This document shows, piece by piece, positions 6,404 through 57,762 of a stretch of DNA of 64,000 nucleotides. Under the pieces are notes generated by a model. That model saw nothing but the letters and a program-made list of their open reading frames with translations, ran no database searches and was not told the DNA's origin. This DNA is from Bacillota bacterium (GTDB lineage: Bacteria; Bacillota; Sulfobacillia; DUSP01; DYEP01), in NCBI GenBank assembly GCA_040755615.1, contig JBFMAL010000003.1:8507-72506 (forward strand), written 5' to 3'. Position numbers and translations under genes: made by a program. The number at the start of each line of letters is the position of its first letter. The stretch's first letter is position 1.

Positions 6404-6406
6404 GTG

Positions 6407-7795: not shown

Positions 7796-7934
7796 GAGCG
7801 ACACCTCCAGTCCGAAAGTCCCCGCTGTATGGATTCCATGCCGGATTTCCGTTTTCCTGTCCCCCCGGTCTTGAAAGGCCTGCAGGAGATCGGGGAATAC
7901 ATTAAGAAACATGAAAAGACTGGAGGTGTGGTAC

Positions 7935-8774: not shown

Positions 8775-8942
8775 CCGGGCGGGAAGTCACATCTTATCTG
8801 CCTGATGATCCGCCCGCGTCACAGTTTATGTCCACTATCTGTCCTGCAGCATACCCGACAGGATCTCCCGCAGCGCTGTGGGCGTTACCTTCCTGCCTCT
8901 GCGCGCGTGACTGGGAACACTCACGTAAGAAGGAGAACTTTC

Positions 8943-9539: not shown

Positions 9540-9589
9540 AGTACCCCAGGTCCAGATTTCACAACCCCCTTGCCACACCCGTATAACCT

Positions 9590-10539: not shown

Positions 10540-11268
10540 TCAGCTCCCGAGCTTCACCCGTTCAACATGAAGGTACGACTGCTGCACAATACTTGAATCG
10601 AGCAGTTCTTCAGCCGTCCCTTCCAGCACGATCTGCCCTTTTTGCATAATGTATCCGCGATCCGCCACCGACAGCGCCTTTTTGGCGTTCTGCTCGACCA
10701 GCAGGATAGTCACTTTTTTCTCGTTTTTGATGTGCGCTATGCTCTTGAACACCTCATCGACGAGCACGGGGGCGAGGCCGAGCGATGGTTCGTCCATGAG
10801 TATGAGCTCAGGCTCAGAGAGAAGGCCCCTGGCGATGGAAAGCATGGTCCTTTCCCCGCCGCTCAGCGTTCCTGCCTTCTGCGAAAGCCGCTCGCGAAGC
10901 CTTGGAAACAGGCTGAACACGCTTTCCAGCCGGGCCCTGATCTTTGAATCGTCCCTTTCGAAATAGGCGCCGAGCCGGAGGTTGCTTTCAACCGTCATCT
11001 TCGGAAACAATCCCTCGCCCTGCGGTACCATGGAGACGCCGGAGGCGACGATCCGGTGAGTGGGCATGTTATCGATGCGCTGTCCCTTGAAGTGTATGGT
11101 GCCTTCCGTGGGTCTGACCAGCCCTAGAATGGTCTTCAGCGTGGTGGTCTTCCCCGCTCCATTCGCCCCGAGGATGCACACCACCTCCCCCGGGTCCACG
11201 CGCATGCTCACGTTCCTCAGCATGGGTATTTTCCCGTAGTTCGTGGATACATTCGTCAGAGTCAACAT
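10540..11268 (-). CDS. livF: Branched-chain amino acid ABC transporter ATP-binding protein (LivF type)
   Basis: Walker A GANGAGKTT, LSGGE signature, Walker B ILMDEPS. Confidence 0.85.
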   Translation of the reverse strand: MLTLTNVSTNYGKIPMLRNVSMRVDPGEVVCILGANGAGKTTTLKTILGLVRPTEGTIHFKGQRIDNMPTHRIVASGVSMVPQGEGLFPKMTVESNLRLGAYFERDDSKIRARLESVFSLFPRLRERLSQKAGTLSGGERTMLSIARGLLSEPELILMDEPSLGLAPVLVDEVFKSIAHIKNEKKVTILLVEQNAKKALSVADRGYIMQKGQIVLEGTAEELLDSSIVQQSYLHVERVKLGS

Positions 11269-12044
11269 GCGGTCGCCTCACCTCCCAAGTAAGCCCGTAT
11301 AACCTCTTCGTTCCTCGATATCTCCGAGAAGGTGCCTTCCGCGATCTTCGTACCCGCGTTAAATACCACGACTCTCTCCGTAACCTCGGATATGACGTCC
11401 ATGTCGTGCTCGATGATGACGATGCTGATGTCTTTGTTCCTTTCCCTTATCCGCCCGATGTCGTCCATCATCTCCATGGTTTCCTGCGGGTTTAAGCCTG
11501 CCGAAGGTTCATCAAGCAGCAGGAGTTCGGGGTCTGAGACCAGCGCACGGCAGATCTCGATCCTGCGCCTGTCTATATGGGGTATGTTCCGGACTCTCTC
11601 GTATCGCCTGTCTATCAAGTCCTCGTTGAAGTAGCGCAGGAACTCGACAGAGATTTCGATACTTCTCTCTAGCTCGGCGTTGGATATCCGCGGCTTGAAA
11701 ATGGCGTCATACCAGCCGGTTCTCTGCCTGGCATAAAGGCCTATCAGAACGTTGTCGAGCACGCTCAGGTTCCAGCACAGCCGGCTCGATTGAAATGTGC
11801 GGGAAATCCCCATCCGCTTCACCTCGTATGCGGGCAGTCCCGAGATATCCCGCCCCTTGAACACGATGGATCCACGGGTGGGCTTATAGATACCGCTTAC
11901 CAGGTTGAAGAAAGTGGTCTTTCCCGAACCGTTAGGCCCGATGAGCCCAACTATCTCGCCGCGACACACAGAGAAGTCCACCCGATCCACCGCCCACAGC
12001 CCGCCGAAGTTGATGGAGACTTCGCTGGTCTTCAAAAGTTCCAT
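11262..12044 (-). CDS. livG: Branched-chain amino acid ABC transporter ATP-binding protein (LivG type)
   Basis: GPNGSGKTT, LLLDEPSAGLNPQE, characteristic LivG C-terminal extension. Confidence 0.85.
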   Translation of the reverse strand: MELLKTSEVSINFGGLWAVDRVDFSVCRGEIVGLIGPNGSGKTTFFNLVSGIYKPTRGSIVFKGRDISGLPAYEVKRMGISRTFQSSRLCWNLSVLDNVLIGLYARQRTGWYDAIFKPRISNAELERSIEISVEFLRYFNEDLIDRRYERVRNIPHIDRRRIEICRALVSDPELLLLDEPSAGLNPQETMEMMDDIGRIRERNKDISIVIIEHDMDVISEVTERVVVFNAGTKIAEGTFSEISRNEEVIRAYLGGEATAC

Positions 12045-12076: not shown

Positions 12077-14353
12077 TTACAGATCACCCTTCATCGCGCG
12101 GAGCACTTTCTCCGGCGTGGCCGGAAGGCTTTTTATCCTAACGCCCACCGCATCGTATATGGCGTTCGTGATGGCGGGGGCGATGGAATTGCACGAAGGC
12201 TCGCCCAGCCCCTTTGCCCCGTACGGACCTAGACCGTCCCCGTACTCCAGCATGATGCACGTCACGTCCGGAGCATCGGCTGACGTCGGGATCAGATATT
12301 CAGAAAGACTGGGGGTGCGGGTGATGCCCCTGTCCATCACCACCTCTTCCATCAACGCGTAGCCCATGCAGTATATAGCGCCGCCCTCCAGCTGGCCCTC
12401 AGCGCTCAGTGGGTTGATGGCACGGCCCACATCGTAGCAGGAAACAATGCGGAGCACCCGAGTCATGCCAGTCTCGGTATCCACAGCCACCTCCACAGCG
12501 TGAGCCCCAAAGGTGAAGTCAGGGAAAATCTGTCCTTTGATGTCCGAAAGATCGGGCACTTCGCAAAACGGCGCATTGAACTGGGCTTCTGAGAACAGCT
12601 CCTGCCCTTCGTTGGCGCACGCGGCAATCACCTTGACAAGCGGCAGCCGCCTGGTCTCGCCCTCTACAATCACGCTGCCTTCCTTGAGATCCAGCCGGTC
12701 AGAACTCACTCCAAGCATCTCCGCAGCCTTGCTGAGGAGCCGTCCCCGCAGCTCTCTTGCAGCCTTCAGGGTGGCGTTTCCTGACATATACAGTTGACGC
12801 GTGGCGGTAGTCGTGCCCGCAAGCGGGGTGAGCGCCGTGTCACTTACATAAATATTCACGTTTGACATATCCACACCCAGTTCTTCGGCGACTATTTGGC
12901 AGAGCGACGAGGACTGGCCGCCGCCTATGTCCGGTACGCCGCACCTTACGGTGACGCTGCCATCCATCTCCACTCTGACGTGAGACCTCGACGTGTCGTG
13001 CAGGAACATGAGCCGACCGTAGCTCATCATGCCCACGGCCACCCCTATTCCTACCTTCCACGGGGCCGGCATTGAAGTGGGTTCACCGAGCGCTTCCCGG
13101 GCGCGTTCGGCTACTTCGGGAAGGGCCACGTAGCGATCGATCTTCCAACCAGTGGACATGGTGCTGCCCTTCTTAATGCAGTTTATCCTTCTGATCTCGA
13201 GCGGATCAATACCCAGCCTCCGGGCCAGTTCATCCATCTGGGACTCGTATGCGAAATTGGGCTGTATGGCTCCAAAGCCCCTGTTTGCGCTCGTAAACGT
13301 GTTATTGGTGAGCACTGTCATGGCAGTGATGTCCACGTTATCCACTTCGTATGGCCCTGTCGCGTTTACCGCAGAATACATCAGCACCCAGGGACTCAGG
13401 TACACGTAGGCGCCCGCGTCTGAAATCAGATCGGCCTTTAGCGCTACAATTTTCCCGTCTGCCATCGCGCCCGTGGTATACCTCATCACGTAGGGATGCC
13501 TCTTGCTGTGCGAGAGGATGGATTCCTCTCGCGTCCATGTCATCTTACAGGGCCGCCCGGTCTTTCGGACGAGGAGTGCGAGGTATGTCTCCACAGTGAT
13601 GTCTTCCTTGCCGCCGAAGCCTCCCCCAGCAAATGTGCCGATGATCCTCACCTTGTTGTGCGGTACTCCGAGAACCGCTGCTACCCCCCGGAAATGCTCG
13701 ATCACCTGAGTGGACACCCTGATGTTGATCACACCGTTTTCATCAAGCCACGCCACACCGGACTCGGGTTCAAGGTAGGCATGGTCGACAAAGGGAACGC
13801 GGTAGGTACCCTCGATCACCACGTCGGCGTGGCGCAGCGCTTCATCCGCATCGCCGCGACGGATCCGGTACCTCGCGATGACGTTGCTCTCGCTCTCCCC
13901 CACAGGATACGCGCCCGGTCTGGCCGCTTCCTCGGGGTCAAACACGCCGGGCAGCGGTTCGTAGTCCACTTCGATGAGCTCGAGCGCCTCCTGTGCGATC
14001 CGTTCGGTCTCGGCGGCCACTAGCGCGACAGCTTCCCCCATGAACCGCACCTTCTTGTCCGCCAAGACCCTGTACATTCCTTCAAAACCGCTTCCCACGT
14101 CCCGGCTCTGGCCGAATTTAGTGACAGTCTCATTGTTGGGCACGTCCTTTGCGGTCAATACGGCGTGTACCCCGGGCAGCGCTTCCGCCTTTTTCGTGTC
14201 GATCGAGAGGATACGGGCCGCAGGATACCGGCTTCTCAGTACCTTCCCGTAAAGCATGCCGGGTAAGCTGAAGTCATCGGCGTACACCACGTCTCCCCTG
14301 GCTTTCGCCCACGCGTCATGCCTCGGCATCGGTTTTCCTATTACCCCGGACAC
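12077..14353 (-). CDS. Xanthine-dehydrogenase-family molybdopterin-binding large subunit (set 1)
   Basis: …VIGKPMPRHDAWAKARG…, GGGFGGK, Mo-pterin-binding motifs. GTG start at 14353 preceded by GGGGAGGTG. Confidence 0.8.
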   Translation of the reverse strand: MSGVIGKPMPRHDAWAKARGDVVYADDFSLPGMLYGKVLRSRYPAARILSIDTKKAEALPGVHAVLTAKDVPNNETVTKFGQSRDVGSGFEGMYRVLADKKVRFMGEAVALVAAETERIAQEALELIEVDYEPLPGVFDPEEAARPGAYPVGESESNVIARYRIRRGDADEALRHADVVIEGTYRVPFVDHAYLEPESGVAWLDENGVINIRVSTQVIEHFRGVAAVLGVPHNKVRIIGTFAGGGFGGKEDITVETYLALLVRKTGRPCKMTWTREESILSHSKRHPYVMRYTTGAMADGKIVALKADLISDAGAYVYLSPWVLMYSAVNATGPYEVDNVDITAMTVLTNNTFTSANRGFGAIQPNFAYESQMDELARRLGIDPLEIRRINCIKKGSTMSTGWKIDRYVALPEVAERAREALGEPTSMPAPWKVGIGVAVGMMSYGRLMFLHDTSRSHVRVEMDGSVTVRCGVPDIGGGQSSSLCQIVAEELGVDMSNVNIYVSDTALTPLAGTTTATRQLYMSGNATLKAARELRGRLLSKAAEMLGVSSDRLDLKEGSVIVEGETRRLPLVKVIAACANEGQELFSEAQFNAPFCEVPDLSDIKGQIFPDFTFGAHAVEVAVDTETGMTRVLRIVSCYDVGRAINPLSAEGQLEGGAIYCMGYALMEEVVMDRGITRTPSLSEYLIPTSADAPDVTCIMLEYGDGLGPYGAKGLGEPSCNSIAPAITNAIYDAVGVRIKSLPATPEKVLRAMKGDL

Positions 14354-14367
14354 TGAACCCACCTCCC

Positions 14368-14841
14368 CTACTCGTTCCGTCTGGCCACCGCTTGTGTGGC
14401 GTCCACGATCTTTTTGTATCCCGTACACCTGCAAAGATTGCCTGACAGTGCCCTGCGTATGTCATCCCTCGAAGGGTTTTTGTGCTCATTTAGGTAGCTG
14501 GCTGCCGTAAGGATCATGCCCGGAGTGCAAAAGCCGCACTGCACCGCACCGTGAGTGACGAAGCTCTCCTGCAGTGCTTTAACCAGCGGTTCATTCTGCA
14601 TGCCGGACAGCGTCTTTACGTCTTTTCCGTCAGCGGAAGCAGCGAGTACGATGCATGACTTCACGGGCAGTCCGTCAAGCAACACCGTACATGTCCCGCA
14701 GTCCCCCTTGCCACAGCCTGACTTGGCGTCGATAATGCGGAGCTGCGTCCTGAGGAACTCAAGCAGCGTCTCATCAGCGCGTACCTCTGCGGAAACCTGC
14801 CTGCCATTTACCGTGAGTTCTATGGCGTAACCTTCCGTCAT
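14368..14841 (-). CDS. (2Fe-2S)-binding small subunit of molybdenum hydroxylase (set 1)
   Basis: CGKGDCGTCTV plant-type cluster plus QCGFCTPG…CRCTGY second cluster. Confidence 0.85.
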   Translation of the reverse strand: MTEGYAIELTVNGRQVSAEVRADETLLEFLRTQLRIIDAKSGCGKGDCGTCTVLLDGLPVKSCIVLAASADGKDVKTLSGMQNEPLVKALQESFVTHGAVQCGFCTPGMILTAASYLNEHKNPSRDDIRRALSGNLCRCTGYKKIVDATQAVARRNE

Positions 14842-15698
14842 GACATGCCACCCCCGAGCGCCATCTTGATTGCCCTGCCGAGCAGTACTCCGGAAATGTG
14901 TCTCCGGTAGCTTTCTGTTGCCCTCACGTCGCTGATGGGGCGTACCTCCCGTGACGCCACCTGCCGGGCCTCATCCAGCACTTCCGCCGTTAGTTTCTTC
15001 CCAACGAGGAATTCTTCAGTCCGAAAGCCCCTCATTGGGGTTGGTGCCACGGCCCCAAAAGCCACCCTCGCGTACGCCACTTCATCTTTCTGAATCCTAA
15101 GCTCCACTCCAACGCTCACCAGCGAGATGGCCATGGCCTCCCTGAGTCCGAATTTGATGAAGGCCTTCTGATTTTCACTATCCGACGGAAACCTTACCGC
15201 GCGTATCAGCTCATCCCGTTCCAGCACCGTCTTTCCCGGCCCGGTGAAGAACGATGAAAGCGGCACCTCCCGCTCTCCGCGCGCGCTGCATATATCAAGC
15301 ACCGCGTCCAGCGCGAGAAGGGGTACGGCGCTGTCCGCGGCGGGAGACGCGTTGGCGAGGTTGCCGCCGATGGTCGCCCTGTTGCGCACCAGGGGATCAG
15401 CGAATCTCTGCGCCGCCTGGTGAAGTATGCCCGCGTTAAGCTCGATGTCGCGGGAGGCCAAAAGCTCGTTGATTGTAGTTAACGCACCGACAGTCACCAC
15501 GTCGCCGTCTGCGTGTATGCCTTTCAGTTCCCCCAGCTTCTCTATGCTCAAAAGTAGCGAGGGTCTGATCTTTTTCGCCCTCAGATCAGGCAGTACGTTG
15601 GTACTTCCAGCCACAACATACACACCCTCCCTCTCCTCGCCAAGAAGGCGGAGCGCCTCAGTGAGAGTCCGAGGTGCGGCATAGCGCATCTTATACAT
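14838..15698 (-). CDS. FAD-binding medium subunit (CoxM/XdhB-like) of molybdenum hydroxylase (set 1)
   Basis: …VVAGSTNV…, …ATIGGNLANASPAADS…. Start taken at MYKMRYAAP (15698), giving a TAATG stop/start overlap with the upstream small-subunit gene. Confidence 0.8.
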   Translation of the reverse strand: MYKMRYAAPRTLTEALRLLGEEREGVYVVAGSTNVLPDLRAKKIRPSLLLSIEKLGELKGIHADGDVVTVGALTTINELLASRDIELNAGILHQAAQRFADPLVRNRATIGGNLANASPAADSAVPLLALDAVLDICSARGEREVPLSSFFTGPGKTVLERDELIRAVRFPSDSENQKAFIKFGLREAMAISLVSVGVELRIQKDEVAYARVAFGAVAPTPMRGFRTEEFLVGKKLTAEVLDEARQVASREVRPISDVRATESYRRHISGVLLGRAIKMALGGGMS

Positions 15699-16174
15699 TA
15701 CGCCCCCTCCTTTTCTTGCGCGCAGGATAAAATGGCAGAAACGATGCTGGTGTAACCGGTACACCTGCAGATGTTACCCCTGATGTATTCGCGGACCTCC
15801 TCTTCCGAGGGCGAGGGGTTTTCATCCAGCAGAGACCTGGCGGTCATGATCATCCCTGGAGTACAGAACCCGCACTGCACTGCCCCATGGTCCAAGAAAG
15901 CCTCCTGGAGTGGGTCCAGCTCATCTCCCCGGGCGAGGCCCTCTACAGTGACCACCTCTTTGCCATCTATGGCAACAGCCAGCGTCAAGCAGGCAAGCGC
16001 AGGCCTTCCGTCTATGAGCACTGTGCACGCCCCGCACTCCCCGATACCGCAGCCGTACTTGGCACCGGTCAGAAAGAGTCTATCCCTGAGTACGTTCAGC
16101 AACAGCTCATTGGGCCTTACGCGCAAAGTCTTCTTCTTCCCGTTCAGCGTCAGAGTAATGCTCGTCTCCGTCAT
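15698..16174 (-). CDS. (2Fe-2S)-binding small subunit of molybdenum hydroxylase (set 2)
   Basis: CGIGECGACTV and QCGFCTPG…CRCTGY motifs. Confidence 0.85.
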   Translation of the reverse strand: MTETSITLTLNGKKKTLRVRPNELLLNVLRDRLFLTGAKYGCGIGECGACTVLIDGRPALACLTLAVAIDGKEVVTVEGLARGDELDPLQEAFLDHGAVQCGFCTPGMIMTARSLLDENPSPSEEEVREYIRGNICRCTGYTSIVSAILSCAQEKEGA

Positions 16175-17082
16175 CTCGGCACCTCACCTCCCGACCTCAC
16201 CCAGGCCGCCTGCATGGCCTCTTCCGCAAGAATGCGGGAGATGGCCTTCCTGTACTCCGCCGTTGAGCGCGCATCCGTAATCGGCGCGATAGCATCCTCC
16301 ACCATCCGGCCAGCCTCCGACAGGACCTGTCTCGACATTGTCGACCCCTTGAGAAAGGACACAACGGAATCAAGAAGCAGCGGGGTCGGGGCTACCGAAC
16401 CCACCGCAACGCGGCAATCTGCGACCCGGTCACCGTCTCTCTCGAGGTATACAGCAATGTTGACTTTGGCGATATCCGCACTCACCCTCCCTATTTTCAA
16501 GAAACTGCTCCCGCTGTCCGGGCGCACTCCATCTACCAAGAGCTCGGTGAGCATCTCGCCTGGGAGCAGCGCAGTCCGGCCGGGCCCGAGGAAGAAGTCG
16601 CAGAGTTTCAGCCGCCTTTCGCCGGCCACCGAAGAGAGCGTGCACACCGTCCCTAGCACCATGAGCGCCGGCGCCGTATCTGCGGCGGGGGAGCCGTTGC
16701 AGAGATTGCCCCCTACTGTCGCCATGTTCCTCACCGCCGGAGCCGCCATGGACCGGAGAGCCTCGTACAGGGCTGAATAACCGGACCTTATCGCAGGAAG
16801 GCGTAGAAGTGCCGCGAGCGTGGTGACTGCTCCGATGTGAAGGGCCCCGTTAATCTGCCTGACGCCTGAGAGCTCCTTTATGTCTTTTACGTTGACCAGG
16901 TATCGGGGAGAAAGCGCCCCTGTCTTCATCTTCACGATCAGGTCCGTTCCTCCTGCCAGTATGTGCACGTTTTTGTCCCTGTGTTGGTCGAGAAAGTGGA
17001 GCGCCTCGGCTTTCGTTTCGGGTCTTAAGTATTCAAATTCGGGCAGGAGCAACCTAGTGTTCGTTTGATTCTGTGCGTTCAT
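16171..17082 (-). CDS. FAD-binding medium subunit of molybdenum hydroxylase (set 2)
   Basis: …ILAGGTDL…, …ATVGGNLCNGSPAADT…. 4-nt overlaps on both sides. Confidence 0.8.
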   Translation of the reverse strand: MNAQNQTNTRLLLPEFEYLRPETKAEALHFLDQHRDKNVHILAGGTDLIVKMKTGALSPRYLVNVKDIKELSGVRQINGALHIGAVTTLAALLRLPAIRSGYSALYEALRSMAAPAVRNMATVGGNLCNGSPAADTAPALMVLGTVCTLSSVAGERRLKLCDFFLGPGRTALLPGEMLTELLVDGVRPDSGSSFLKIGRVSADIAKVNIAVYLERDGDRVADCRVAVGSVAPTPLLLDSVVSFLKGSTMSRQVLSEAGRMVEDAIAPITDARSTAEYRKAISRILAEEAMQAAWVRSGGEVPR

Positions 17083-19430
17083 CTGGCAACACCTTCTCTC
17101 AGCGCTTCCAGCACACGTTCGGGCGTCACGGGAAGCTTCTTAAAGCGGATACCGGTCGCATTGTATATCGCGTTAACAATGGCGGAGGCCGCGGAGTTGA
17201 GCGCTGCCTCCCCGATGCCCTTTGCGCCCAGGGGCCCGGAAGGTTCATAGGTGTTGGCGAACCCCACCATGATATCGTCTATGGCAGGCATCTCGCAGGC
17301 TGTGGGCAACTTGTAGTCGGTAAGGTAGCCTCCGCATACGAGCCTCCCTGTATTACTGTCGTATGCCGTCTCCTCAAGCAGGGCAAAAGCAAGCCCGCGG
17401 CACAGTCCCCCGATCAGCTGCCCCTTCACCATGTCCGGGTTTATAGGGGTACCACAATCGCCGAGGAGCGCAGCGCGCACGATCCGCACCCTGCCCGTTC
17501 TCTTTTCGACCTCCACCTCGACGAAATGGGTGACGAAACACGGTGGGCAGTTCTTCTGCCTGTAGCTGTCCGTCGCAGCGATGGTGCCCCAGCTTTTAAT
17601 CTGCGCCGTTTTGGCCACCTCGCCCAGCGTGATGTATCTGTCAGGCAGACCTGTCGGATAGATCACCGCCTGCCCTATCTCCTCGTTTCTCGCAAGGCTT
17701 AAGTCCCTAGGGTTCTGCTCGAGTATGCGCGCGGCAAATTCGAGGATCTTTTGCCTTACCTGTTCGGCCACGTGGTGTACCGCGCCCACCCCGCAGTACA
17801 CGCCCCGGGTAGCATGTGTGCACACGTCGTAGCCCGTAGTCCTCGTGTCAGAAGGCGAGATGCCCACCATGTCAAGCGGCACCTTCAGCACCTCTGCTAC
17901 CACCTTGGCGGCGGCTTCCCACGTACCGCCCCCCTGGTCCATGACCGGCGTGATCAGGTCCACTGACCCGTCTTCGTTGACCTTTATCGTAGCGCTTGAG
18001 TAGTCGATGACCTCGCCGGGCTTGGGACCGCCCGTACCAGAGGTGTGAAACCCTCGCGCCACGCCTATCCCGCGCACCACGTCACCGCTCTTCTGCGACG
18101 GGTGAACTCTCCGATCCCAGCCGATCATGGCCGCCCCACGCGAGAGCATCTCTTCCACGCCGCAGCTTTTGATGATAGACCTGACTGTTGGACCCTGGCC
18201 CCAGAACTCGTCTCCCACGCCCACGTAGTTCATGAGCCGGAGTTGTATCGGGTCGATCCCGAGCTCCTCTGCAAGCATATCCATGAGGCTTTCCACAGCG
18301 AAGTTGGTCTGCGGGTTACCGTAGCCCTGCATGGCGCAGGCGGGTACCTTGTTGGTGTACACGGCCCTGCCCTCAAAAAGAAGGTTCTGGAATTTGTAAA
18401 GCGATGCAAACCAGCCCGCTATGCACCCGAGCAAAGGGTACGCCTGGATATTGTGAGCGCCGATGTCCACCAGCGCTTTCATGTGAGCAGCCACAAGCCG
18501 CCCGTCCTTTTTCGCCCCGAACTTCAGCCAGAACCTGACCGGGTACTTCACGTGGTCGTACATGTCCTCTTCCCTGGAAGTCACAAGCTTCACGGGCCGC
18601 TTCGCCCTGAGTGCAAGACCCACGCAGATTGGCGTTATAGAGTTCATCTGGATGCTCGAGCCGAACGCACCGCCCAAGGCGATCCGCTTCACGTTCACTT
18701 TGTGAAGCGGCAGGCTGAATATCTGGCCCAGTAGTTGCCTGACATTATGGATAGTCTGGGTCGTAGTCCAGACAGTGATGCCGCCGTCCGGTTCGGGTGC
18801 GCACACCGCCGCCTTAGTCTCCATCTGGGCGTGGTACATCCTTTGCGCCTCGAACTCGCTCTCTACCGTGATGTCCGCCTGCCGGAAGCCATCCTCCACG
18901 TCCCCCACCGCTATGCTCCTCTCACAGGCGATGTTGTTCTTCACCTGGATGCATTCGCCCCCGAGAAACACGGTATCGTAGAGCCTCGCCCCGCGGGCTT
19001 CTACCATCGCGTCCTTTACGTCGAGCGCAGAAGGCAGCTCTTTGTACTGTACCTTTACCTTGGAAAGAGCCAGCATGGCAAGCTCTTCCGTATCATGTGC
19101 CACTGCCAGCACCGCTTCTCCAACATGCCTCACCTTCTTTGGCAGCACCGTCCGATCCCTGTAAGTCTTCTCAGGGATGCTCACCGTACGTTCGTTGTAT
19201 ACTGTGTCCGGTACGTCAAACGGGGTAAGGCAGACCGCGCCCATCCGCTCTGCTTCGCTCACGTCCACGTCCACAATTTCCGCGTGTGGATGGGGGCTCC
19301 GCAACACCACAGCGTGCATCATACCCGGCAGGTACACGTCGGAAGAATATATCTCGCGACCAGTGACTTTCGCTATGCCGTCCTTTCTTCGAGCGCGCCT
19401 GCCGGCAACCTCAAATTGCCTGGTCTCCAT
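17079..19430 (-). CDS. Xanthine-dehydrogenase-family molybdopterin-binding large subunit (set 2)
   Basis: …GIAKVTGREIYSSD…, GGAFGS, …GEAALNSAASAIVNAI…. Start set at METRQFEV (19430, ribosome-binding site GGGGTGGA) rather than the 5'-extended ORF that would overlap livM. Confidence 0.8.
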   Translation of the reverse strand: METRQFEVAGRRARRKDGIAKVTGREIYSSDVYLPGMMHAVVLRSPHPHAEIVDVDVSEAERMGAVCLTPFDVPDTVYNERTVSIPEKTYRDRTVLPKKVRHVGEAVLAVAHDTEELAMLALSKVKVQYKELPSALDVKDAMVEARGARLYDTVFLGGECIQVKNNIACERSIAVGDVEDGFRQADITVESEFEAQRMYHAQMETKAAVCAPEPDGGITVWTTTQTIHNVRQLLGQIFSLPLHKVNVKRIALGGAFGSSIQMNSITPICVGLALRAKRPVKLVTSREEDMYDHVKYPVRFWLKFGAKKDGRLVAAHMKALVDIGAHNIQAYPLLGCIAGWFASLYKFQNLLFEGRAVYTNKVPACAMQGYGNPQTNFAVESLMDMLAEELGIDPIQLRLMNYVGVGDEFWGQGPTVRSIIKSCGVEEMLSRGAAMIGWDRRVHPSQKSGDVVRGIGVARGFHTSGTGGPKPGEVIDYSSATIKVNEDGSVDLITPVMDQGGGTWEAAAKVVAEVLKVPLDMVGISPSDTRTTGYDVCTHATRGVYCGVGAVHHVAEQVRQKILEFAARILEQNPRDLSLARNEEIGQAVIYPTGLPDRYITLGEVAKTAQIKSWGTIAATDSYRQKNCPPCFVTHFVEVEVEKRTGRVRIVRAALLGDCGTPINPDMVKGQLIGGLCRGLAFALLEETAYDSNTGRLVCGGYLTDYKLPTACEMPAIDDIMVGFANTYEPSGPLGAKGIGEAALNSAASAIVNAIYNATGIRFKKLPVTPERVLEALREGVAR

Positions 19431-19458
19431 TCGTGAATCCACCCCAAACGTTTTCGAT

Positions 19459-20679
19459 TTAAGCTTGATACCCTGTTTCGTGTCGTCCGGATCCGTGTGC
19501 TTTGCGCCAGGCCCTGCCAAAGACCAGCTCGTATCTTCTCACGCGTTTCGGGATGAGCCCCTCAGGCCGGAGCAGCAGCACTGTAAGCAGGATCACGCCA
19601 TACAAAAGCATCCTGTAGTCGGTGAAATCGCGGAGCTTTTCGTCGATAAGGGTGAGTAGCACTGCGCCTACTGTCACGCCGGTCACGTTGTCCATCCCTC
19701 CAAGGATAACCATACAGATTATCATAAGGGATTTTGTGAAATCAAAGTCTTCCGGACCGATGAAACTGATGTAATGAGCATAGATGGCGCCCGCTGCTCC
19801 CGCGAAGGCACCACCCGCGCAGAACGCTAAAAGCTTGGCGGAGGCCGGGTTTATCCCCTGGCAGCGCGCCGCTATCTCGTCCTCCCCAATAGTATTCCAG
19901 CAAAGCCCCAGGCGGGAGATGTGAAGTCTTGAGGCCACGTAGCCTGCACACATCAACACCAGCGCGGAGAGGTAGAAGTAGTGGGCCTGGTAGGGTAACC
20001 TGTAGCCAAACAGCCAAAGCGGCGAGCGAAAGGAATAGCTGCCGAGAGAATAGGGCGTGATCCCCGCCACCCCGTTCGGCCCGCCCACCCATTCGGTGTT
20101 GATGATGAGGAGCGTGAACACTGTCTGCATGGCGATGGTCACCAGCGACAGGTAGTACCCCCTTGTCCTCAGCGTAGGAAGGCCGATAAGGTAGGCGAGA
20201 AGCACCGTCATAACCATGGCCGCGGGGATGCCAAACCAGGGGTTAAGGCCTATCTTCATATTGAGCAATGCGGAGGTGTAAGCGCCCATGCCGAAGAACG
20301 CGCCTCCCGCGAAGTTGGTCATGTCGGTGCTTCCCATCTGGAAGTTAAGGCCCAGCGCAGTAATGGCATAAAGGCATGCCATCACTGCGATGTGCACGAG
20401 ATAGGGGCTTTTCCGTATGGTAAAGGGAAACAAAAACAGGATTATGGAAAGCGCAAGGAGCGCAGCGCGCCTGTTTTGTGAGTACAGCCGAAACAGCTCA
20501 TCGATAAGCCCCACCCGCTCAAGGCAGATAAGGCCTGTCACGATCAACGCCACGGCGCTCATGGACACGTAGAACCGGCCTGTCACCACCGCATATACGA
20601 GGGCGGCGGAGACTGCGTTGATCGCCACCACGAGCGCAGGTTCCCACTTCGGGTTCAGTCTCGCAATCAATCTTGACAT
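19459..20679 (-). CDS. livM: Branched-chain amino acid ABC transporter permease (LivM type)
   Basis: Polytopic membrane protein with a LivM-like conserved loop. Confidence 0.8.
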   Translation of the reverse strand: MSRLIARLNPKWEPALVVAINAVSAALVYAVVTGRFYVSMSAVALIVTGLICLERVGLIDELFRLYSQNRRAALLALSIILFLFPFTIRKSPYLVHIAVMACLYAITALGLNFQMGSTDMTNFAGGAFFGMGAYTSALLNMKIGLNPWFGIPAAMVMTVLLAYLIGLPTLRTRGYYLSLVTIAMQTVFTLLIINTEWVGGPNGVAGITPYSLGSYSFRSPLWLFGYRLPYQAHYFYLSALVLMCAGYVASRLHISRLGLCWNTIGEDEIAARCQGINPASAKLLAFCAGGAFAGAAGAIYAHYISFIGPEDFDFTKSLMIICMVILGGMDNVTGVTVGAVLLTLIDEKLRDFTDYRMLLYGVILLTVLLLRPEGLIPKRVRRYELVFGRAWRKAHGSGRHETGYQA

Positions 20680-20726
20680 GGTTTCACGGACCCCTTTCGT
20701 TCATGCCGGCTTGGACCACTCACGCC

Positions 20727-21647
20727 CTACACCTTCTCCACTGTCTTTTCGCCGAGGATGCCTTCCGGCTTGAATATCATGAACAGCACGACGACCATGA
20801 AGGCGAATACGCTGGCGTACGCTGTGCCCCCGTGGATGTACCCGGAGACGAACACCTCGACGAAAGCGATGAGCATGGAGCCGACGATGGCTCCGTAGGT
20901 GTTGCCGAGCCCGCCCACCACGGCTGCGGAAAACCCTTTCAGACCGTACAGCGCGCCCATGTCAAACCTGATGATGCTGTAATAGGAGCCGATCAGGAAG
21001 CCGCCGATACCAAGCAGCAATCCCCCAATAACGAAGGTCAGTGTGACGATGGCACCGGGGTTGATCCCTATCATGCACGCGGCTTCCTTGTTCTGGGATA
21101 TCGCCTGCATGGACTTGCCTGTCTTGGTGCGGTTCACAAACAGAAACAAAAGCGTCAAAAGGACCAAGGTTGTACCCAAGATGATGAGGTTTCTGTACGA
21201 GAGGATGGCCATATCAGACAGCGCTCCCCCGGGCAGGAGCCTTGGAAACACGTGCGGGTTTCTGCCCTGCGGGTAAAACAGCCCGATGAGCTCACGTATC
21301 ACCACGCCAAGAGCGATCGTGCTGAGGAGCGGCATGAGCGAGGGTCTTCCCTCAAATGGTTTCACCCCCACCCTGTGCGTCGTCACGCTGAGAAGTGCGC
21401 AAAGCATGGTCCCTCCGAGCACTACTGCGAGCGTTAACAGCCACACGGGAACACCAGCCACGAGCCCGCCCGCTACTGCCAGGGAGTAAATCGCAAGTAC
21501 GCCGAATGCTCCGAAGATAGCGATATCCCCTACACAGAAGATCACTGTATCAATGACCCCGAAAAACAGCGAATACCCTATGGCAGCCAGGGTGTAGCAG
21601 CTACCAAGTAGCAACGCGTTCATAACCTGCTCGGTGAAAACAGACAC
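20727..21647 (-). CDS. livH: Branched-chain amino acid ABC transporter permease (LivH type)
   Basis: Polytopic membrane protein; LivH-like. Confidence 0.8.
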   Translation of the reverse strand: MSVFTEQVMNALLLGSCYTLAAIGYSLFFGVIDTVIFCVGDIAIFGAFGVLAIYSLAVAGGLVAGVPVWLLTLAVVLGGTMLCALLSVTTHRVGVKPFEGRPSLMPLLSTIALGVVIRELIGLFYPQGRNPHVFPRLLPGGALSDMAILSYRNLIILGTTLVLLTLLFLFVNRTKTGKSMQAISQNKEAACMIGINPGAIVTLTFVIGGLLLGIGGFLIGSYYSIIRFDMGALYGLKGFSAAVVGGLGNTYGAIVGSMLIAFVEVFVSGYIHGGTAYASVFAFMVVVLFMIFKPEGILGEKTVEKV

Positions 21648-21729
21648 TTCGTATTATCCTCCTCCGGCGTCTTGTTTGCCAAAAACCCTATAGAAATAAA
21701 AAACGGGGAAACGGGGCCGTCCTTAAAAC

Positions 21730-22944
21730 CTATTTGGGAAGGGTCCTCTTCCCTGTGGCGTATTCAGAGTCATCCCACGGTACCCATTTACCATCCTGGA
21801 CCACCAGTATGGTAGCTATGGCGTTGGTCGTCTGGCCGACCGAGTTGAACTTGGTCGTACCCAAAAGGCCTGAATACTCTATCTTGGCTATGGCGTCGAT
21901 GAGTTTGTCCCTGTCAGGTCCGACCTGCTTCAAAGCGGCCAGTATAATGCCTGCCGCATCATAAGCGTAAGGCCCGTACACGCCGAAAGGCTCTTTAAAT
22001 CCTGCCTTCTCATATTCAGCCACGAACTGAGCCCCGCCGGGGAGCTTGTCAATGCTCTTTCCGGGCTTGCTGCTAATGGTGCCTTCAGCGTTGGCTCCTG
22101 CGACCTCGATATACTTCTCCGAGCCGATACCGGATATGGCTGCCATGGGCACCGTGATCCCGAGCTCAGCCATTTGCTGCTTGATCAGCGCGCCTTCCAT
22201 TACCACGCCGCCAAAGTACACTGCGTCGGGGTTCAAACTCTTGATCTTGGTTAGAATCGGACGGAAATCTGTCTGGCCTACCTGGATTTCGTCCACGCTC
22301 AGGATCTCCGCGCCGGCTCGTTTGCCCACTTCGTCTTTCCATGCCGCGGTGTTGTTCTTTCCATAAACGCTGGTGTCAGAAATGATAACCCACTTTTTTA
22401 GGCCCATCTGGTCAATAGCGAAGTTGGCCAGCGGGATGTTCTCCTGAACGGAGGTGGGGCACACGCGCGTGACAATGGGGTAGTTCTCCGCAGTTGTCAA
22501 AGTCGGAGAGATGGCCCCCCAGATGACAAACGGTATGCCTGCCTGTTTGAAGACGGGAATGGTCGCTTCCGCCACCGGGCTGTTCCAATGTCCGCTGGCA
22601 GCCACCACATCCGGGTCGGATGTGATTTTAAGCGCAGCTGATACGCCGGTTGCCGGCGTGGAGGCGTCATCCATCTCAATTACTTCGATCTTGAAAGGGA
22701 ATTGTCCGGATTCGTTCGCCAGCTTAATGGCAAGGTTGAATGCATTCCTCGCACCTGTCCCCTGATACGCGTTAGGCCCTGTGAGAGGTCCAATGAAGCC
22801 GATTTTGACAACCTTGGGTGTCTCGGGAGCTGTGTCTTTTGGTGCCGCTGCATCCCTGCCGCAGCCAGTCAGGCTGAAGCCAAAAAACAGGGCGACCACT
22901 ATCAACAAGCCGGTCAGTCTGACAGTCTTGCGCGAAGCAACCAT
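21730..22944 (-). CDS. Liv-type ABC transporter substrate-binding lipoprotein (periplasmic binding protein family I)
   Basis: Signal peptide with lipobox …FSLTGCG…, then …KIGFIGPLTGPNAYQG…. Start at MVASRK (22944) behind GGAGG; the longer ORF upstream is discounted. Confidence 0.75.
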   Translation of the reverse strand: MVASRKTVRLTGLLIVVALFFGFSLTGCGRDAAAPKDTAPETPKVVKIGFIGPLTGPNAYQGTGARNAFNLAIKLANESGQFPFKIEVIEMDDASTPATGVSAALKITSDPDVVAASGHWNSPVAEATIPVFKQAGIPFVIWGAISPTLTTAENYPIVTRVCPTSVQENIPLANFAIDQMGLKKWVIISDTSVYGKNNTAAWKDEVGKRAGAEILSVDEIQVGQTDFRPILTKIKSLNPDAVYFGGVVMEGALIKQQMAELGITVPMAAISGIGSEKYIEVAGANAEGTISSKPGKSIDKLPGGAQFVAEYEKAGFKEPFGVYGPYAYDAAGIILAALKQVGPDRDKLIDAIAKIEYSGLLGTTKFNSVGQTTNAIATILVVQDGKWVPWDDSEYATGKRTLPK

Positions 22945-23344
22945 CTGTTTTCCTCCCTCTTCCTCCCATAATTGTGTGATAACCCAACAAGACACCTTCA
23001 ATCTGACTTGACGCCCTCTTTGAATACCGCTGCAAGGCCAGCCCCGTTCCCCGCTTGCAAGCCTTACGGTTGCTAATCTCCGCGCCCCACCCCCTATTTG
23101 CCCAGCATATCCTGCTCTTCCTTGCGTCATTTCTTCATTGAGTCGACTTAACCTCTTTTTGACCCCGCAGCCTGGGCCCAGAAACACTTATCCATCTCGC
23201 CCTGGCTCGCCTCGCGCGCCCCGGGCTGTCGGGCACAAACTGCCCACAGAGCCTAAAGCACCATCTCGCGGGCTTTCTTATGAAGCGATGATCTCTTTGA
23301 CCACCGCGCGCAGCGAGATCGGTCTTCTCTTTATTACTACTTCA

Positions 23345-23360
23345 GCAACAACTGTGCCAC
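23345..23360 (-). promoter_or_regulatory. Sigma-54 (RpoN) -24/-12 promoter driving the livK / Mo-hydroxylase / livGF operon
   Basis: Minus strand reads G-TGGCAC-AGTTG-TTGC-T, a near-perfect match to TGGCAC-N5-TTGCW. It lies about 400 nt upstream of the livK ATG and divergent from the sigma-54 activator gene. Confidence 0.6.
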
Positions 23361-23587: not shown

Positions 23588-25327
23588 TTGTCACTGCTTA
23601 TGAAGATCCGAACTTTTATGAAGCTGGCTGACACTGCGGAAATCGGCATCCTGATACTCGGACGCGAGGGCTGCGTGTCCTGTGTCAACAACACCGCGGC
23701 TCAACTTCTGTGGCAGAAAAGTGCTCTGCCGGCTACGCAAAAGACCCTGCCTCCTGCGCTCCTCACCCTGTTTTGCCCGCCTCAGGGTAAGGGGAGAGCG
23801 ACCGTTGTCGCGCGCGGGCGGGTTGAGCTCCCGGGCGGGACGGTGTCGGCGCGGGGCGGAGTGACATTCAGCTCGGGTGTGATTCAGCACGCGTTTCTTT
23901 GCTTGGTGAGAGCTACCGATGATACAGCGAAAGATCAGATCAGCGCGCTGGAGGAACGGCTGAGTACGCTCGAGCAGATTCTCCAGGCCTCCTACGATGA
24001 AGTGTTGGCCACCGATGGCAACGGCGTTGTGTTTTTCGCGAATCACGCCTTTGAAACCCACTACGGCGTGCCCGTATCGGACGTGATCGGGCGTCACGTC
24101 AAGGACCTTGAAAAGGACGGGTTATGGGAGAATTCGGTCACTCCAATGGTGATCTCCAGCAAGCAGCGCATAACCATCCAGCAACGCACTGCGATCGGTA
24201 AGACCATGATCGTCACCGGTACGCCTGTACTTGATTCAAACGGGGAAGTGAAGATGGTGGTGTGCAACGCGCGGGACGTTACCGAGATGAACAAGCTGCA
24301 CTCCGAGCTTGAGAAAACCAAGGACCTGGTGAGGATCTACCAGAAGCAGCTGGCGCTCCAGAGCGAGGGGGAGTTCATCGTATCCCGCAGTGCAAAAATG
24401 CAAGCCGTGCTGGAAACAATGGAGAAGGTGGCCAGGACCGACGTGACCGTGCTGCTGCGCGGCGAATCAGGCGTGGGAAAAGACGTGATCGCCCGGGCAA
24501 TCCACAAAATGGGGTCAAGGCGGGACAAGCTGTTCCTGAAGGTAAGTTGCGCGTCTATCCCCGAGCACCTGATTGAGGCAGAGCTGTTCGGTTACAAGCC
24601 CGGAGCATTTACCGGCGCGCAGAAACAGGGTAAAGCAGGCCTTTTGGAGATCGCGCAAGGCGGAACCATATTCCTTGACGAGATAGGCGAACTGCCCATG
24701 GGGCTTCAGGCAAAGCTCTTGCAAGTACTTGACGAGAAGCAGTTCTTGAAGCTGGGCGATACGAAGCCGACTCGTGTCGATGTCCGGGTGATCACCGCAA
24801 CTAACAGGGATCTCGAAACCATGATTGACCAGGCACTGTTCCGCAGGGACCTCTACCACAGGCTCGGCACGGTCACCATCTTCATACCCCCTCTCAGGGA
24901 GAGACCCGAGGACGTGCTGGCGTTTCTCCATTACTACCTTGACTCCCTGAACAGGAAGTACCAGACACAAAAGCGGTTTGACCCAAAAGCCATTAACGCA
25001 CTTCTGTCTTACCGATGGCCCGGCAACGTGAGGGAGCTCGCCAACCTGCTCGAACAGCTCGTGGTCACGGTGGACGACGACGTTATTGGGCTTTGCAGCC
25101 TGCCCCCTGACATCGTGGTCCAGACCGAAAACGGTGCTTTGCCAGGCCTTCGCGGGGCAGGCTCCCTGGCGGAAGCGCTTGAGTCGGTGGAAGCTACCAT
25201 CATACGCGAGGCATACAGGCGTTACGGCAGCAGCTACCAGGTCGCGCGGGCGCTGGGCCTCAGCCAGTCGGCCGCTTATAGAAAGTACCAAAAGTACGTG
25301 GTAGGTGAAGGTACCGGCCAAAGGTAG
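23588..25327 (+). CDS. Sigma-54-dependent transcriptional activator (PAS sensor, AAA+ sigma-54 interaction domain, Fis-type HTH)
   Basis: GESGVGKDVIARAIH Walker A, GAFTGA motif (…KPGAFTGAQ…), and C-terminal HTH …YGSSYQVARALGLSQSAAYRKYQKY. Confidence 0.85.
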   Translation: MSLLMKIRTFMKLADTAEIGILILGREGCVSCVNNTAAQLLWQKSALPATQKTLPPALLTLFCPPQGKGRATVVARGRVELPGGTVSARGGVTFSSGVIQHAFLCLVRATDDTAKDQISALEERLSTLEQILQASYDEVLATDGNGVVFFANHAFETHYGVPVSDVIGRHVKDLEKDGLWENSVTPMVISSKQRITIQQRTAIGKTMIVTGTPVLDSNGEVKMVVCNARDVTEMNKLHSELEKTKDLVRIYQKQLALQSEGEFIVSRSAKMQAVLETMEKVARTDVTVLLRGESGVGKDVIARAIHKMGSRRDKLFLKVSCASIPEHLIEAELFGYKPGAFTGAQKQGKAGLLEIAQGGTIFLDEIGELPMGLQAKLLQVLDEKQFLKLGDTKPTRVDVRVITATNRDLETMIDQALFRRDLYHRLGTVTIFIPPLRERPEDVLAFLHYYLDSLNRKYQTQKRFDPKAINALLSYRWPGNVRELANLLEQLVVTVDDDVIGLCSLPPDIVVQTENGALPGLRGAGSLAEALESVEATIIREAYRRYGSSYQVARALGLSQSAAYRKYQKYVVGEGTGQR

Positions 25328-26845: not shown

Positions 26846-26857
26846 GGAGGAAGTACC

Positions 26858-32490: not shown

Positions 32491-32503
32491 TGGAGGAGAT
32501 CTG

Positions 32504-33844: not shown

Positions 33845-33861
33845 CAGGGAGGTTAGCGAAA

Positions 33862-34071: not shown

Positions 34072-34084
34072 GAGGTGTCTTGAA

Positions 34085-42415: not shown

Positions 42416-42417
42416 TG

Positions 42418-57655: not shown

Positions 57656-57762
57656 ATAGATTCTTCTGAAGAAAGCAGTTTGCCGACTACTCCTCGGCAA
57701 TTGACCCTTGACAATTTGATCATGGTTTGACGTTGCTACCTGGCTTTAGATCAATTTGGCCA

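Follow-up and report, generated by a model that had tools for sequence, protein, structure and literature searches.

The nicotinate dehydrogenase of Eubacterium barkeri (NdhF-NdhS-NdhL-NdhM, PDB 3hrd) is a selenium-dependent molybdenum enzyme that acts on a heteroaromatic carboxylate and hydroxylates the carbon adjoining its ring nitrogen. Paired molybdenum (Mo) hydroxylases, each adding one oxygen before ring cleavage, are known from Bacillus niacini (nicotinate and 6-hydroxynicotinate dehydrogenases) and Mycobacterium sp. INA1 (isonicotinate and 2-hydroxyisonicotinate dehydrogenases). In aerobic Pseudomonas, imidazoleacetate 4-monooxygenase converts imidazole acetate to imidazolone acetate, which is further degraded via formiminoaspartate to aspartate. 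Clostridium oroticum is said to ferment orotate and to possess a 5-carboxymethylhydantoinase (EC 3.5.2.4), reportedly the subject of work by Lieberman and Kornberg in the 1950s, by which a cyclic ureide is opened to N-carbamoyl-L-aspartate and then converted to aspartate, CO2 and NH3; we know of no Mo hydroxylases or ABC importer in that system and of no genes assigned to the carboxymethylhydantoinase. The locus described here lies in a stretch of 64,000 nucleotides of a Bacillota bacterium (contig JBFMAL010000003.1, assembly GCA_040755615.1), referred to below as the window, and combines a Liv-type ABC importer with two Mo hydroxylases of the xanthine dehydrogenase (XDH) family, L1-M1-S1 and M2-S2-L2 (large, medium and small subunits). 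The hydroxylase pair with its importer is a widespread, uncharacterised catabolic module, present in the window in a lineage-specific gene order. Its substrate is probably an N-C-N heterocyclic carboxylate, which would be oxidised to the cyclic ureide of N-carbamoyl-aspartate. We see an even chance that the module takes up imidazole-4-acetate and oxidises it to hydantoin-5-acetate, from which N-carbamoyl-L-aspartate and finally aspartate and ATP would be formed.

Among the open-access papers searched, none describes this cluster or a molybdenum-dependent anaerobic pathway for imidazole acetate. Recent work on urate and 2,8-dioxopurine concerns different enzymes (fused XdhAC/XdhD-type) and a different carbamoyltransferase, YgeW (bioRxiv 10.1101/2025.04.24.650524; PMC12507026).

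The hydroxylase pair and its transporter

The cluster comprises eleven co-directional genes on the minus strand between positions 10540 and 22944, recognised from the list of open reading frames (ORFs) and Pfam domains. Four start codons were reassigned using ribosome-binding site (RBS) context and domain boundaries. The genes are given in operon order.

21730-22944, minus strand: Liv-type substrate-binding lipoprotein (substrate-binding protein, SBP), 404 aa; Peripla_BP_6, 179 bits; lipobox LTGC
20727-21647, minus strand: ABC permease, LivH-like; BPD_transp_2
19459-20679, minus strand: ABC permease, LivM-like; BPD_transp_2
17079-19430, minus strand: L1, molybdopterin-binding large subunit of hydroxylase 1, 783 aa; Ald_Xan_dh_C, MoCoBD_1 and MoCoBD_2; ATG at 19430 with RBS
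16171-17082, minus strand: M1, FAD-binding medium subunit of hydroxylase 1; FAD_binding_5 and CO_deh_flav_C; 4 nt overlap with L1
15698-16174, minus strand: S1, small subunit of hydroxylase 1 with two [2Fe-2S] clusters; Fer2 and Fer2_2; C42/47/50/62 and C101/104/136/138
14838-15698, minus strand: M2, FAD-binding medium subunit of hydroxylase 2, 286 aa; Pfam; reassigned ATG overlaps the S1 stop codon (TAATG)
14368-14841, minus strand: S2, small subunit of hydroxylase 2 with two [2Fe-2S] clusters; Pfam and 4 + 4 Cys motifs
12077-14353, minus strand: L2, molybdopterin-binding large subunit of hydroxylase 2, 758 aa; Pfam; GTG at 14353 with RBS
11262-12044, minus strand: ABC ATPase, LivG-like; ABC_tran and BCA_ABC_TP_C
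10540-11268, minus strand: ABC ATPase, LivF-like; ABC_tran

The intergenic distances in the same order are 82, 47, 28, -4, -4, -1, -4, 14, 32 and -7 nt, and start and stop codons of neighbouring genes overlap in the hydroxylase block. The initial annotation had described eleven co-directional genes in the order SBP-permease-permease, L-M-S, M-S-L, ATPase-ATPase, with the ATPases separated from the permeases by about 7.4 kb of oxidoreductase genes, and both statements were confirmed by the ORFs and Pfam and by the 7.4-kb livM-livG gap. It gave the gaps as at most about 50 nt, a value which one gap, the 82-nt SBP/LivH gap, exceeds, and its range of 12077-23360 misses the two ATPase genes, as the operon extends to 10540.

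L1 and L2 each match all three large-subunit Pfam domains nearly end to end. The three-subunit composition of the XDH family was found in both enzymes, with FAD_binding_5 and CO_deh_flav_C in the medium subunits and 4 + 4 Cys [2Fe-2S] motifs in S1 and S2. Identity between the paralogues in pairwise BLASTP is 32 % for L1/L2, 36 % for M1/M2 and 50 % for S1/S2, so the two paralogous XDH-family enzymes that had been annotated are, judged by these values, old paralogues and distinct enzymes; a recent tandem duplication was ruled out by the low L1/L2 value.

The positions of bovine XDH residues E802, R880, F914 and E1261 are occupied in L2 by E250, R285, F360 and E718, which are kept in 51-56 of 56 L2 orthologues, and in L1 by I260, K295, Y370 and E741, invariant or nearly so in an alignment of 10 orthologues. 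The catalytic Glu (E1261) is present in both, within GAKGIGEA in L1 and GAKGLGEP in L2; E718 of L2 aligns with the GAKGVGEP motif of NdhM, and E741 of L1 aligns with E718 in BLASTP. The alignment proposed in the initial annotation for the CoxL loop (VAYRCSFR) and the XDH Glu/Arg pair revealed the loop in neither large subunit (ACAMQGYGNPQ in L1 and TSANRGFGAIQ in L2 at this position) and the pair in L2, not in L1.

Neither large subunit passes any curated NCBIfam cut-off. The scores of L1 were 493 bits with XdhA (cut-off 780), 420 with HcrA (995) and 258 with CoxL (991); L2 scored 560 bits with PucD (784), 521 with XdhA, 516 with HcrA and 287 with CoxL. Canonical xanthine dehydrogenase (XdhA/PucD) was rejected on the equivalog cut-offs missed by both subunits and the Glu/Arg pair present only in L2, and aerobic CO dehydrogenase on the absent loop and the CoxL scores. 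The closest solved relative of L2 is the E. barkeri nicotinate dehydrogenase (304 bits for NdhL and 199 bits for NdhM), and the active-site segment of L2 scores 169 bits against this enzyme in comparison to 89 bits against XDH. L2 is, however, unsplit and carries Glu instead of Leu at the E802 position.

Species-representative genomes were scanned with an L1 alignment, which yielded 80 loci; together with loci from five context look-ups they made a set of 84 non-redundant loci (designated by L and three digits). All ORFs of these loci were compared by blastp with the window proteins and companion genes, and orthologues were accepted at identities of at least 50 % for L2 and at least 45 % for the SBP. 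The L1 orthologue family is very large (57-94 % identity, at least 8 phyla), and its carriers belong to Bacillota, Atribacterota, Desulfobacterota, Acidobacteriota, Chloroflexota, Actinomycetota, Caldisericota and Planctomycetota. An L2 orthologue lies beside L1 in 59 of the 84 loci, and in 33 of the 38 loci of at least 20 kb. More loci (27) have L1-M1-S1-M2-S2-L2 than any other order; the mirror-like L-M-S / M-S-L arrangement pointed out in the initial annotation is therefore ancestral to the module and no accident of the window genome.

The transporter has the architecture of the LIV-I branched-chain amino-acid transporter without its contiguity or equivalog scores: the SBP reached 126 bits with the LivJ-type NCBIfam model (cut-off 477), the LivH-like permease 128 bits with LivH (379) and the LivM-like permease 211 bits with LivM (366). 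SBP orthologues of 45-78 % identity adjoin the hydroxylases in 22 of the 84 loci (17 of the 38 loci of at least 20 kb), and the cognate permeases and ATPases are also present there. In the reciprocal test, all four SBP homologues looked up (57-62 % identity, selected solely by the length of their contigs) adjoin XDH-family L/M/S genes. The LivG-like ATPase shares 58-68 % identity with the ATPases that serve this transporter in related clusters, and the LivF-like ATPase 52-67 % with cluster-linked ATPases elsewhere. Since the SBP orthologues track the hydroxylases, the Liv-type transporter is a dedicated part of the hydroxylase module, and the view that it does not serve branched-chain amino acids, already taken in the initial annotation, was upheld. 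The recurrence of the hydroxylase pair in related loci and the adjoining SBP orthologues likewise demonstrate that the juxtaposition of transporter and hydroxylases is real and non-random.

Transporter and hydroxylase genes are interleaved in several lineages. The closest relative, a Symbiobacterium sp. metagenome-assembled genome (L008; 88 % nucleotide identity over 10.9 kb), has the window order SBP-LivH-LivM-L1-M1-S1-M2-S2-L2, and Anaeroselena and Desulfosporosinus have M2-S2-L2-SBP-L1-M1-S1-LivH-LivM-LivG-LivF. The exact break between livM and livG occurs only in the window lineage, so the split transporter highlighted in the initial annotation lacks general significance; it is a lineage-specific rearrangement of modest interest, and the main interest lies in the conserved uncharacterised module. 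In Atribacterota, a five-gene Liv-like ABC transporter is located between the alpha and beta genes of an ADP-forming acyl-CoA synthetase (L019:2840-9936, also L020, L029 and L033), another module parted by a transporter in this cluster family.

Companion genes and the candidate substrate

A cyclic amidohydrolase is encoded in 33 of the 84 loci. Among solved structures its common type is nearest to an L-selective hydantoinase (1gkr, 312 bits), followed by allantoinase (247 bits) and dihydroorotase (222 bits); a second type, from Neomoorella, is dihydroorotase-like (pyrC_multi 413 bits, cut-off 279). Aspartate carbamoyltransferase is present in 18-19 loci (TIGR00670 376 bits, cut-off 237) and keeps the aspartate-binding residues R167, R229, Q231 and K84, in a provisional comparison with E. 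coli PyrB. Carbamate kinase was found in 19 loci, aspartase (aspartate ammonia-lyase) in 7 and phosphoenolpyruvate carboxykinase in few. An M20 N-carbamoyl-amino-acid amidohydrolase is present in 6 loci, and in some loci it seems to stand in for the carbamoyltransferase and the kinase. The ErtD and ErtE models were among the better matches of the companion amidohydrolase and M20 enzymes, all under the cut-offs. The cofactor genes YqeB, YqeC, MobA and XdhC are also common (YqeB, YqeC and XdhC in 13-19 loci). YqeB and YqeC, maturation genes linked to selenium-dependent Mo hydroxylases, were counted in 19 and 16 of the related loci, respectively. The two hydroxylases of the module may depend on selenium; neither gene lies within the 64-kb window, where an AIR-synthase-like gene at 1358-2389 scores under the SelD cut-off.

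In Atribacterota the hydroxylases belong to a co-directional cluster with an amino-acid ABC transporter, HutP (equivalog 158 bits, cut-off 155), a HisC-type aminotransferase (343 bits, cut-off 277), IorA, IorB, both subunits of ADP-forming acyl-CoA synthetase and the maturation genes. Its 3' part reads L1-M1-S1, M2-S2-L2, then YqeC, MobA, YqeB and XdhC. Directly 3' of hutP, a NAG-N4-NAG-N4-NAG repeat is present in both loci with this gene, as TAGatgaTAGggggTAG (within L023:4525-5260) and GAGatatTAGttatTAG (within L049:3595-4310). Both repeats overlap the 5' arm of a terminator hairpin followed by a T-run, upstream of the hisC-like, iorAB and acyl-CoA synthetase genes and the L1...L2 block. The histidine-responsive hut antiterminator of Bacillus subtilis has the same NAG-repeat/terminator architecture, and the Atribacterota element looks like a hut-type antiterminator placed on a non-Hut histidine operon, devoid of hutHUIG.

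The companions suggest that the hydroxylation product is the cyclic ureide of N-carbamoyl-L-aspartate. In the proposed pathway, the SBP and transporter would import imidazole-4-acetate, derived from histidine via imidazolepyruvate or from histamine. The two hydroxylases would each introduce one water-derived oxygen, at C2 and at C5, which both adjoin a ring nitrogen, giving hydantoin-5-acetate (5-carboxymethylhydantoin) and four reducing equivalents; two different hydroxylases would be needed because two ring carbons adjoin nitrogen, one for each enzyme. XDH hydroxylates C8 of purines, which is the imidazole C2 position, and by this analogy L2, with its Glu/Arg pair, might act on C2 and L1 on C5, which is speculation. 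In related genomes, the L-hydantoinase-like amidohydrolase would open hydantoin-5-acetate to N-carbamoyl-L-aspartate, and aspartate carbamoyltransferase working in reverse together with carbamate kinase would yield aspartate, ATP, NH3 and CO2; aspartase could then turn aspartate into fumarate. The upstream enzymes of Atribacterota would convert histidine through imidazolepyruvate and imidazoleacetyl-CoA to imidazole-4-acetate with a gain of ATP. In the window organism the operon would serve to import and oxidise external imidazole-4-acetate, the later steps being encoded elsewhere or absent. Taken as a whole, a widespread Hut-independent anaerobic route for histidine, histamine and imidazole-4-acetate, with two probably selenium-dependent Mo hydroxylases, aspartate and ATP as its end and HutP control in Atribacterota, is put forward tentatively, at slightly less than an even chance.

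Imidazole-4-acetate links the upstream and downstream contexts because two oxygens turn it (C5H6N2O2) into hydantoin-5-acetate (C5H6N2O4), which is hydrolysed to N-carbamoyl-L-aspartate; we know of no other common natural metabolite that gives a cyclic form of N-carbamoyl-aspartate by two hydroxylations. The catalytic Glu in both large subunits and the proximity of L2 to a hydroxylase of heteroaromatic carboxylates are also consistent with this substrate. We infer substrate, regiochemistry and direction of flux from the gene content, gene order, motifs, orthology and co-localisation observed in the window and the related loci.

Several points weigh against imidazole-4-acetate. No amidohydrolase, aspartate carbamoyltransferase, carbamate kinase, YqeB/YqeC or upstream companion was found in the 64-kb window; since ring-opening enzymes are missing there, the function was read from related loci, and the substrate assignment for this operon depends wholly on orthology to clusters in other phyla. 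The ligand of the SBP cannot be read from solved structures, as it shares only about 25 % identity with LivJ/K-type proteins. HutP and the HisC-like gene were encountered in no more than 2 and 3 loci, respectively. PyrE genes (7 loci) and PreA/PyrD-like genes (2 loci) would suit a six-membered orotate route more directly, and PucR, YqeB/YqeC and the purine-type Glu/Arg pair of L2 would also be compatible with purines.

The orotate route, which we consider unlikely, assumes import of a pyrimidine-4-carboxylate-type compound and two hydroxylations to orotate, followed by PyrE salvage or by pyrimidine synthesis in reverse, that is fermentation through dihydroorotate and N-carbamoyl-aspartate to aspartate and carbamoyl phosphate. 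Orotate phosphoribosyltransferase (PyrE) genes do occur in the clusters of 7 loci (pyrE_Therm 184 bits, cut-off 150; pyrE 137 bits, cut-off 107), a PreA/PyrD-like dehydrogenase occurs in L005 and L084, the Neomoorella amidohydrolase is of the dihydroorotase-like type, and the route accommodates aspartate carbamoyltransferase, carbamate kinase and aspartase just as well. Most loci, however, are devoid of dihydroorotate dehydrogenase, the commonest amidohydrolase is nearest to L-hydantoinase, and the Atribacterota context of HutP, HisC, IorA/IorB and acyl-CoA synthetase would be left unexplained. PyrE could alternatively divert carbamoyl-aspartate into pyrimidine synthesis, and we know of no abundant natural pyrimidine-4-carboxylate without oxo groups.

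A similarly low probability is given to a purine role, in which the pair would consist, like that of purinolytic clostridia, of a xanthine dehydrogenase and a purine/hypoxanthine hydroxylase and would be served by a purine-base importer. XdhA is the best NCBIfam model for L1 and PucD/XdhA for L2, E250 and R285 of L2 form the XDH pair, PucR-family regulators are encoded in 5-9 loci, the YqeB/YqeC/XdhC set is frequent, and the Neomoorella locus adjoins an XdhD-like fused enzyme. The XDH models nevertheless remained far under their cut-offs (493-560 versus 780-916 bits), L1 has I260 and K295 in place of the pair, and the active-site segment of L2 is nearer to nicotinate dehydrogenase than to XDH. 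Moreover, purine breakdown gives no N-carbamoyl-aspartate, yet aspartate carbamoyltransferase, aspartase, HutP, HisC and IorA/IorB recur.

That M2-S2-L2 is a nicotinate dehydrogenase and L1-M1-S1 a second hydroxylase of a pyridine carboxylate, for example 6-hydroxynicotinate dehydrogenase, is highly improbable. In its favour are the closeness of L2 to NdhL and NdhM, the gene order, which we take to equal ndhF-ndhS-ndhL(M), and the two successive Mo hydroxylases acting on nicotinate in B. niacini and on isonicotinate in Mycobacterium. Pyridines, however, cannot yield the carbamoyl compounds implied by the companions because their ring has no N-C-N unit; L2 has Glu at the Leu position of NdhL, and no enamidase, mutase or other nicotinate-fermentation genes were identified among the gene clusters common to at least 4 of the 84 loci.

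The initial annotation had seen an anaerobic aromatic or heterocycle catabolic module and pointed to Liv-type importers of benzoate and 4-hydroxybenzoate; in the aromatic-acid version of this reading, the enzymes would resemble 4-hydroxybenzoyl-CoA reductase (4-HBCR). The alpha subunit of 4-HBCR (1rm6_A) is indeed the top full-length PDB match of L1 (285 bits) and L2 (363 bits), although NdhL and NdhM together give L2 503 bits. The HcrA, HcrB and HcrC models all stayed far under their cut-offs, HcrB matching M1 and M2 as two split stretches with 143 and 114 bits in comparison to the required 405. M1 and M2 are ordinary FAD subunits without the four-Cys insertion for the [4Fe-4S] cluster of HcrB (M1 has no four-Cys loop and mature M2 only one Cys). 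With no CoA ligase or benzoyl-CoA pathway gene recurrent in the 84 loci, 4-HBCR was rejected and the aromatic reading is hardly credible. The chance of an ordinary branched-chain amino-acid transporter broken by unrelated oxidoreductase genes is negligible: the domain architecture alone is that of LivJHMGF, but its SBP, permeases and ATPases are orthologous to transporters accompanying the same hydroxylases, the Liv models fall far short, the order is kept in L008, and adjacent genes of the hydroxylase block overlap at their start and stop codons.

The general idea of an uptake and hydroxylation module for an N-heterocyclic acid, contained in the initial annotation, was supported; the remark that the substrate cannot be read from the sequence holds for the window alone and no longer with the comparative context, in which imidazole-4-acetate is the candidate. 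If the assignment to imidazole-4-acetate is true, the module would represent a new anaerobic fate of the imidazole ring of histidine and histamine with energy conserved twice (acyl-CoA to ATP and carbamoyl phosphate to ATP). It would provide functions for two large conserved orthologous groups annotated only as 'xanthine dehydrogenase family protein' and for a family of Liv-type transporters now wrongly labelled as binding branched-chain amino acids, as well as a physiological role for the long-known 5-carboxymethylhydantoinase activity. It would also bear on how uncultured phyla of the subsurface, Atribacterota among them, turn over necromass and amino acids, and on the microbial removal of imidazole-4-acetate, a bioactive histamine metabolite. 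The pathway is directly testable in the cultured carriers Neomoorella humiferrea, Anaeroselena agilis and Desulfosporosinus sp. HMP52.

Variants of the companion set were noted in several phyla. In some Desulfobacterota (L038:6558-7500, also L039 and L062), a true ornithine carbamoyltransferase gene (383 bits, cut-off 306) lies between M1 and S1 and adjoins aspartate carbamoyltransferase, carbamate kinase and PyrE genes. In Desulfobacterota, Acidobacteriota and Planctomycetota (L041:9803-12871, L042, L047 and L057-L059), the carbamoyltransferase/carbamate-kinase pair is replaced, and an AroM-family protein, a hydantoinase-like amidohydrolase and a second divergent amidohydrolase ('AmidX') are encoded directly after L2. 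The AroM companion had no match in the PDB; its reading as a hydantoin racemase, suggested by the Pfam clan, was not used as evidence.

Promoter, leader and surroundings of the operon

Three further features lie at the 5' end of the operon.

23344-23359, minus strand: sigma-54 -24/-12 promoter element TGGCACAGTTGTTGCT, the sole zero-mismatch match in the 64-kb window
22945-23343, minus strand: 5' leader of about 400 nt, from the promoter to the SBP start, defined by sequence
23588-25327, plus strand: divergent sigma-54 enhancer-binding protein (EBP) with PAS, AAA+ and helix-turn-helix (HTH) domains (Pfam), likely start ATG at 23600

The sigma-54 promoter divergent from a PAS-containing EBP, reported in the initial annotation, was recovered as an exact element next to a gene with PAS, AAA+ and HTH domains. 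The GG-N10-GC spacing of a -24/-12 promoter is present in the perfect TGGCAC-N5-TTGCT, located about 400 nt 5' of the SBP start codon, and the adjacent divergent gene encodes PAS, Sigma54_activat and HTH domains. About 0.06 exact matches to TGGCAC-N5-TTGCW would be expected in 128 kb, and the same promoter is kept in L008 as TGGCACGGTTGTTGCT (positions 362-377). The loose pattern with one mismatch was not enriched (11 found, 12.6 expected), and only the exact conserved site was used. The best NCBIfam model of the EBP is PrdR (402 bits, under the cut-off of 795).

No further sigma-54 sites were found on the coding strand in the cluster interior. Since promoter- and terminator-like sites inside the cluster are not in excess, being fewer than in shuffled sequence, a single transcript is plausible and the eleven genes may form one operon controlled by sigma-54 and the EBP. 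A sigma-70-like site (TTGGCA-18-GATAAT, 10/12 matches) at 21653-21682 in the 82-nt SBP/LivH gap could be an internal promoter or a chance match, given that such sites are regionally fewer than in shuffles.

The 3' part of the leader (about 230 nt) is G/A-rich and conserved in comparison to L008 as strongly as coding sequence, and an indel of about 45 nt distinguishes the two just downstream of the promoter. The riboswitch reading of the 400-nt leader was dropped because Rfam gave no match (whole window at gathering thresholds, leader at E <= 1) and the folding was no better than that of shuffles (z = +0.99). No such EBP was found in the other 84 loci, which carry PucR, IclR, HTH-cupin or HutP regulators instead; the livM-livG split and the sigma-54/EBP control are specific to the Symbiobacteriaceae-like lineage of the window.

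The 3' end of the operon faces convergent genes (7911-10255) for a carbon-nitrogen hydrolase (nitrilase superfamily, no equivalog; 7911-8774), an S-adenosylmethionine-dependent methyltransferase and a MarR regulator; none of the 84 related loci has a counterpart of the hydrolase. Immediately 3' of the EBP gene, positions 25934-29795 encode CoA-transferase A and B, a thiolase-domain protein of the SCP-x type and an unannotated ORF of 335 aa, and no link between these genes and the hydroxylase module was found in the other loci. On the plus strand, 5-10 kb past the EBP gene, there follow three genes, which encode an aldehyde:ferredoxin oxidoreductase of the tungsten type (30643-32490), an aminotransferase of class III (omega; 32414-33844) and a sodium:solute symporter (34085-35515); that this amine-to-aldehyde-to-acid module (30643-35515) could make imidazole-4-acetate from histamine is pure speculation. 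A minus-strand cluster at 2382-7936, with LutB/LutC/LutA-like proteins (LUD, CCG and 4Fe-4S domains) and a GlcD-type FAD oxidase, resembles lactate/glycolate utilisation genes and appears unrelated to the operon. A fused phosphotransferase-system (PTS) EIICBA gene adjoins one for a 482-aa protein with a YdjC-like C-terminal half (40604-43866), and an IS1595/ISXO2-like transposase ORF of 223 aa with a partial DDE domain lies at 56988-57659.

Comparison with known systems

With LIV-I (LivJHMGF) and Liv-type aromatic-acid importers the transporter shares the five-component architecture and the Pfam families. It differs from LIV-I in its scores far under the Liv cut-offs and its distance from solved LivJ/K proteins, in the 7.4-kb insertion between livM and livG, and in the genomic tie of its orthologues to the hydroxylase pair. 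Three-subunit architecture and the catalytic Glu in both large subunits are common to the window enzymes, XdhABC/PucCDE and the Rhodobacter capsulatus XDH (1jro), and L2 is also XDH-like in its equivalents of Glu802, Arg880 and Phe914. The differences from XDHs are the equivalog scores below the cut-offs, the Ile/Lys/Tyr set of L1, and companions which point to aspartate and carbamoyl phosphate rather than to purines.

The E. barkeri nicotinate dehydrogenase is about 50 % identical to L2 in the active-site segment and shares with M2-S2-L2 the FAD-FeS-Mo gene order and, in related loci, the presence of YqeB/YqeC. In contrast to it, L2 is encoded by one gene and has Glu250 instead of the NdhL Leu, and the clusters have no nicotinate-fermentation genes; YqeB/YqeC are absent from the window. 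The pairs of B. niacini and Mycobacterium sp. INA1 follow the logic proposed for the window pair, in aerobic pyridine pathways, whereas here a conversion of imidazole to hydantoin is proposed.

The anaerobic indoleacetate (iaa) pathway of Aromatoleum/Azoarcus and ergothioneine degradation by ErtD/ErtE resemble the proposed route in that an arylacetate heterocycle is oxidised next to nitrogen and opened by a hydantoinase-type enzyme; the rings and products are different (2-aminophenylsuccinate and N-carbamoyl-glutamate), and the ErtD/ErtE cut-offs were not reached. The C. oroticum route has its counterpart in three companions of the related loci, namely amidohydrolase, aspartate carbamoyltransferase and carbamate kinase, which lie outside the window. 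The aerobic Pseudomonas route has the substrate and the aspartate end product proposed here; it relies on an O2-dependent flavin monooxygenase and releases formamide/formate, whereas the module described in this work would use water-derived oxygen and pass the ureido carbon through carbamoyl phosphate to ATP.

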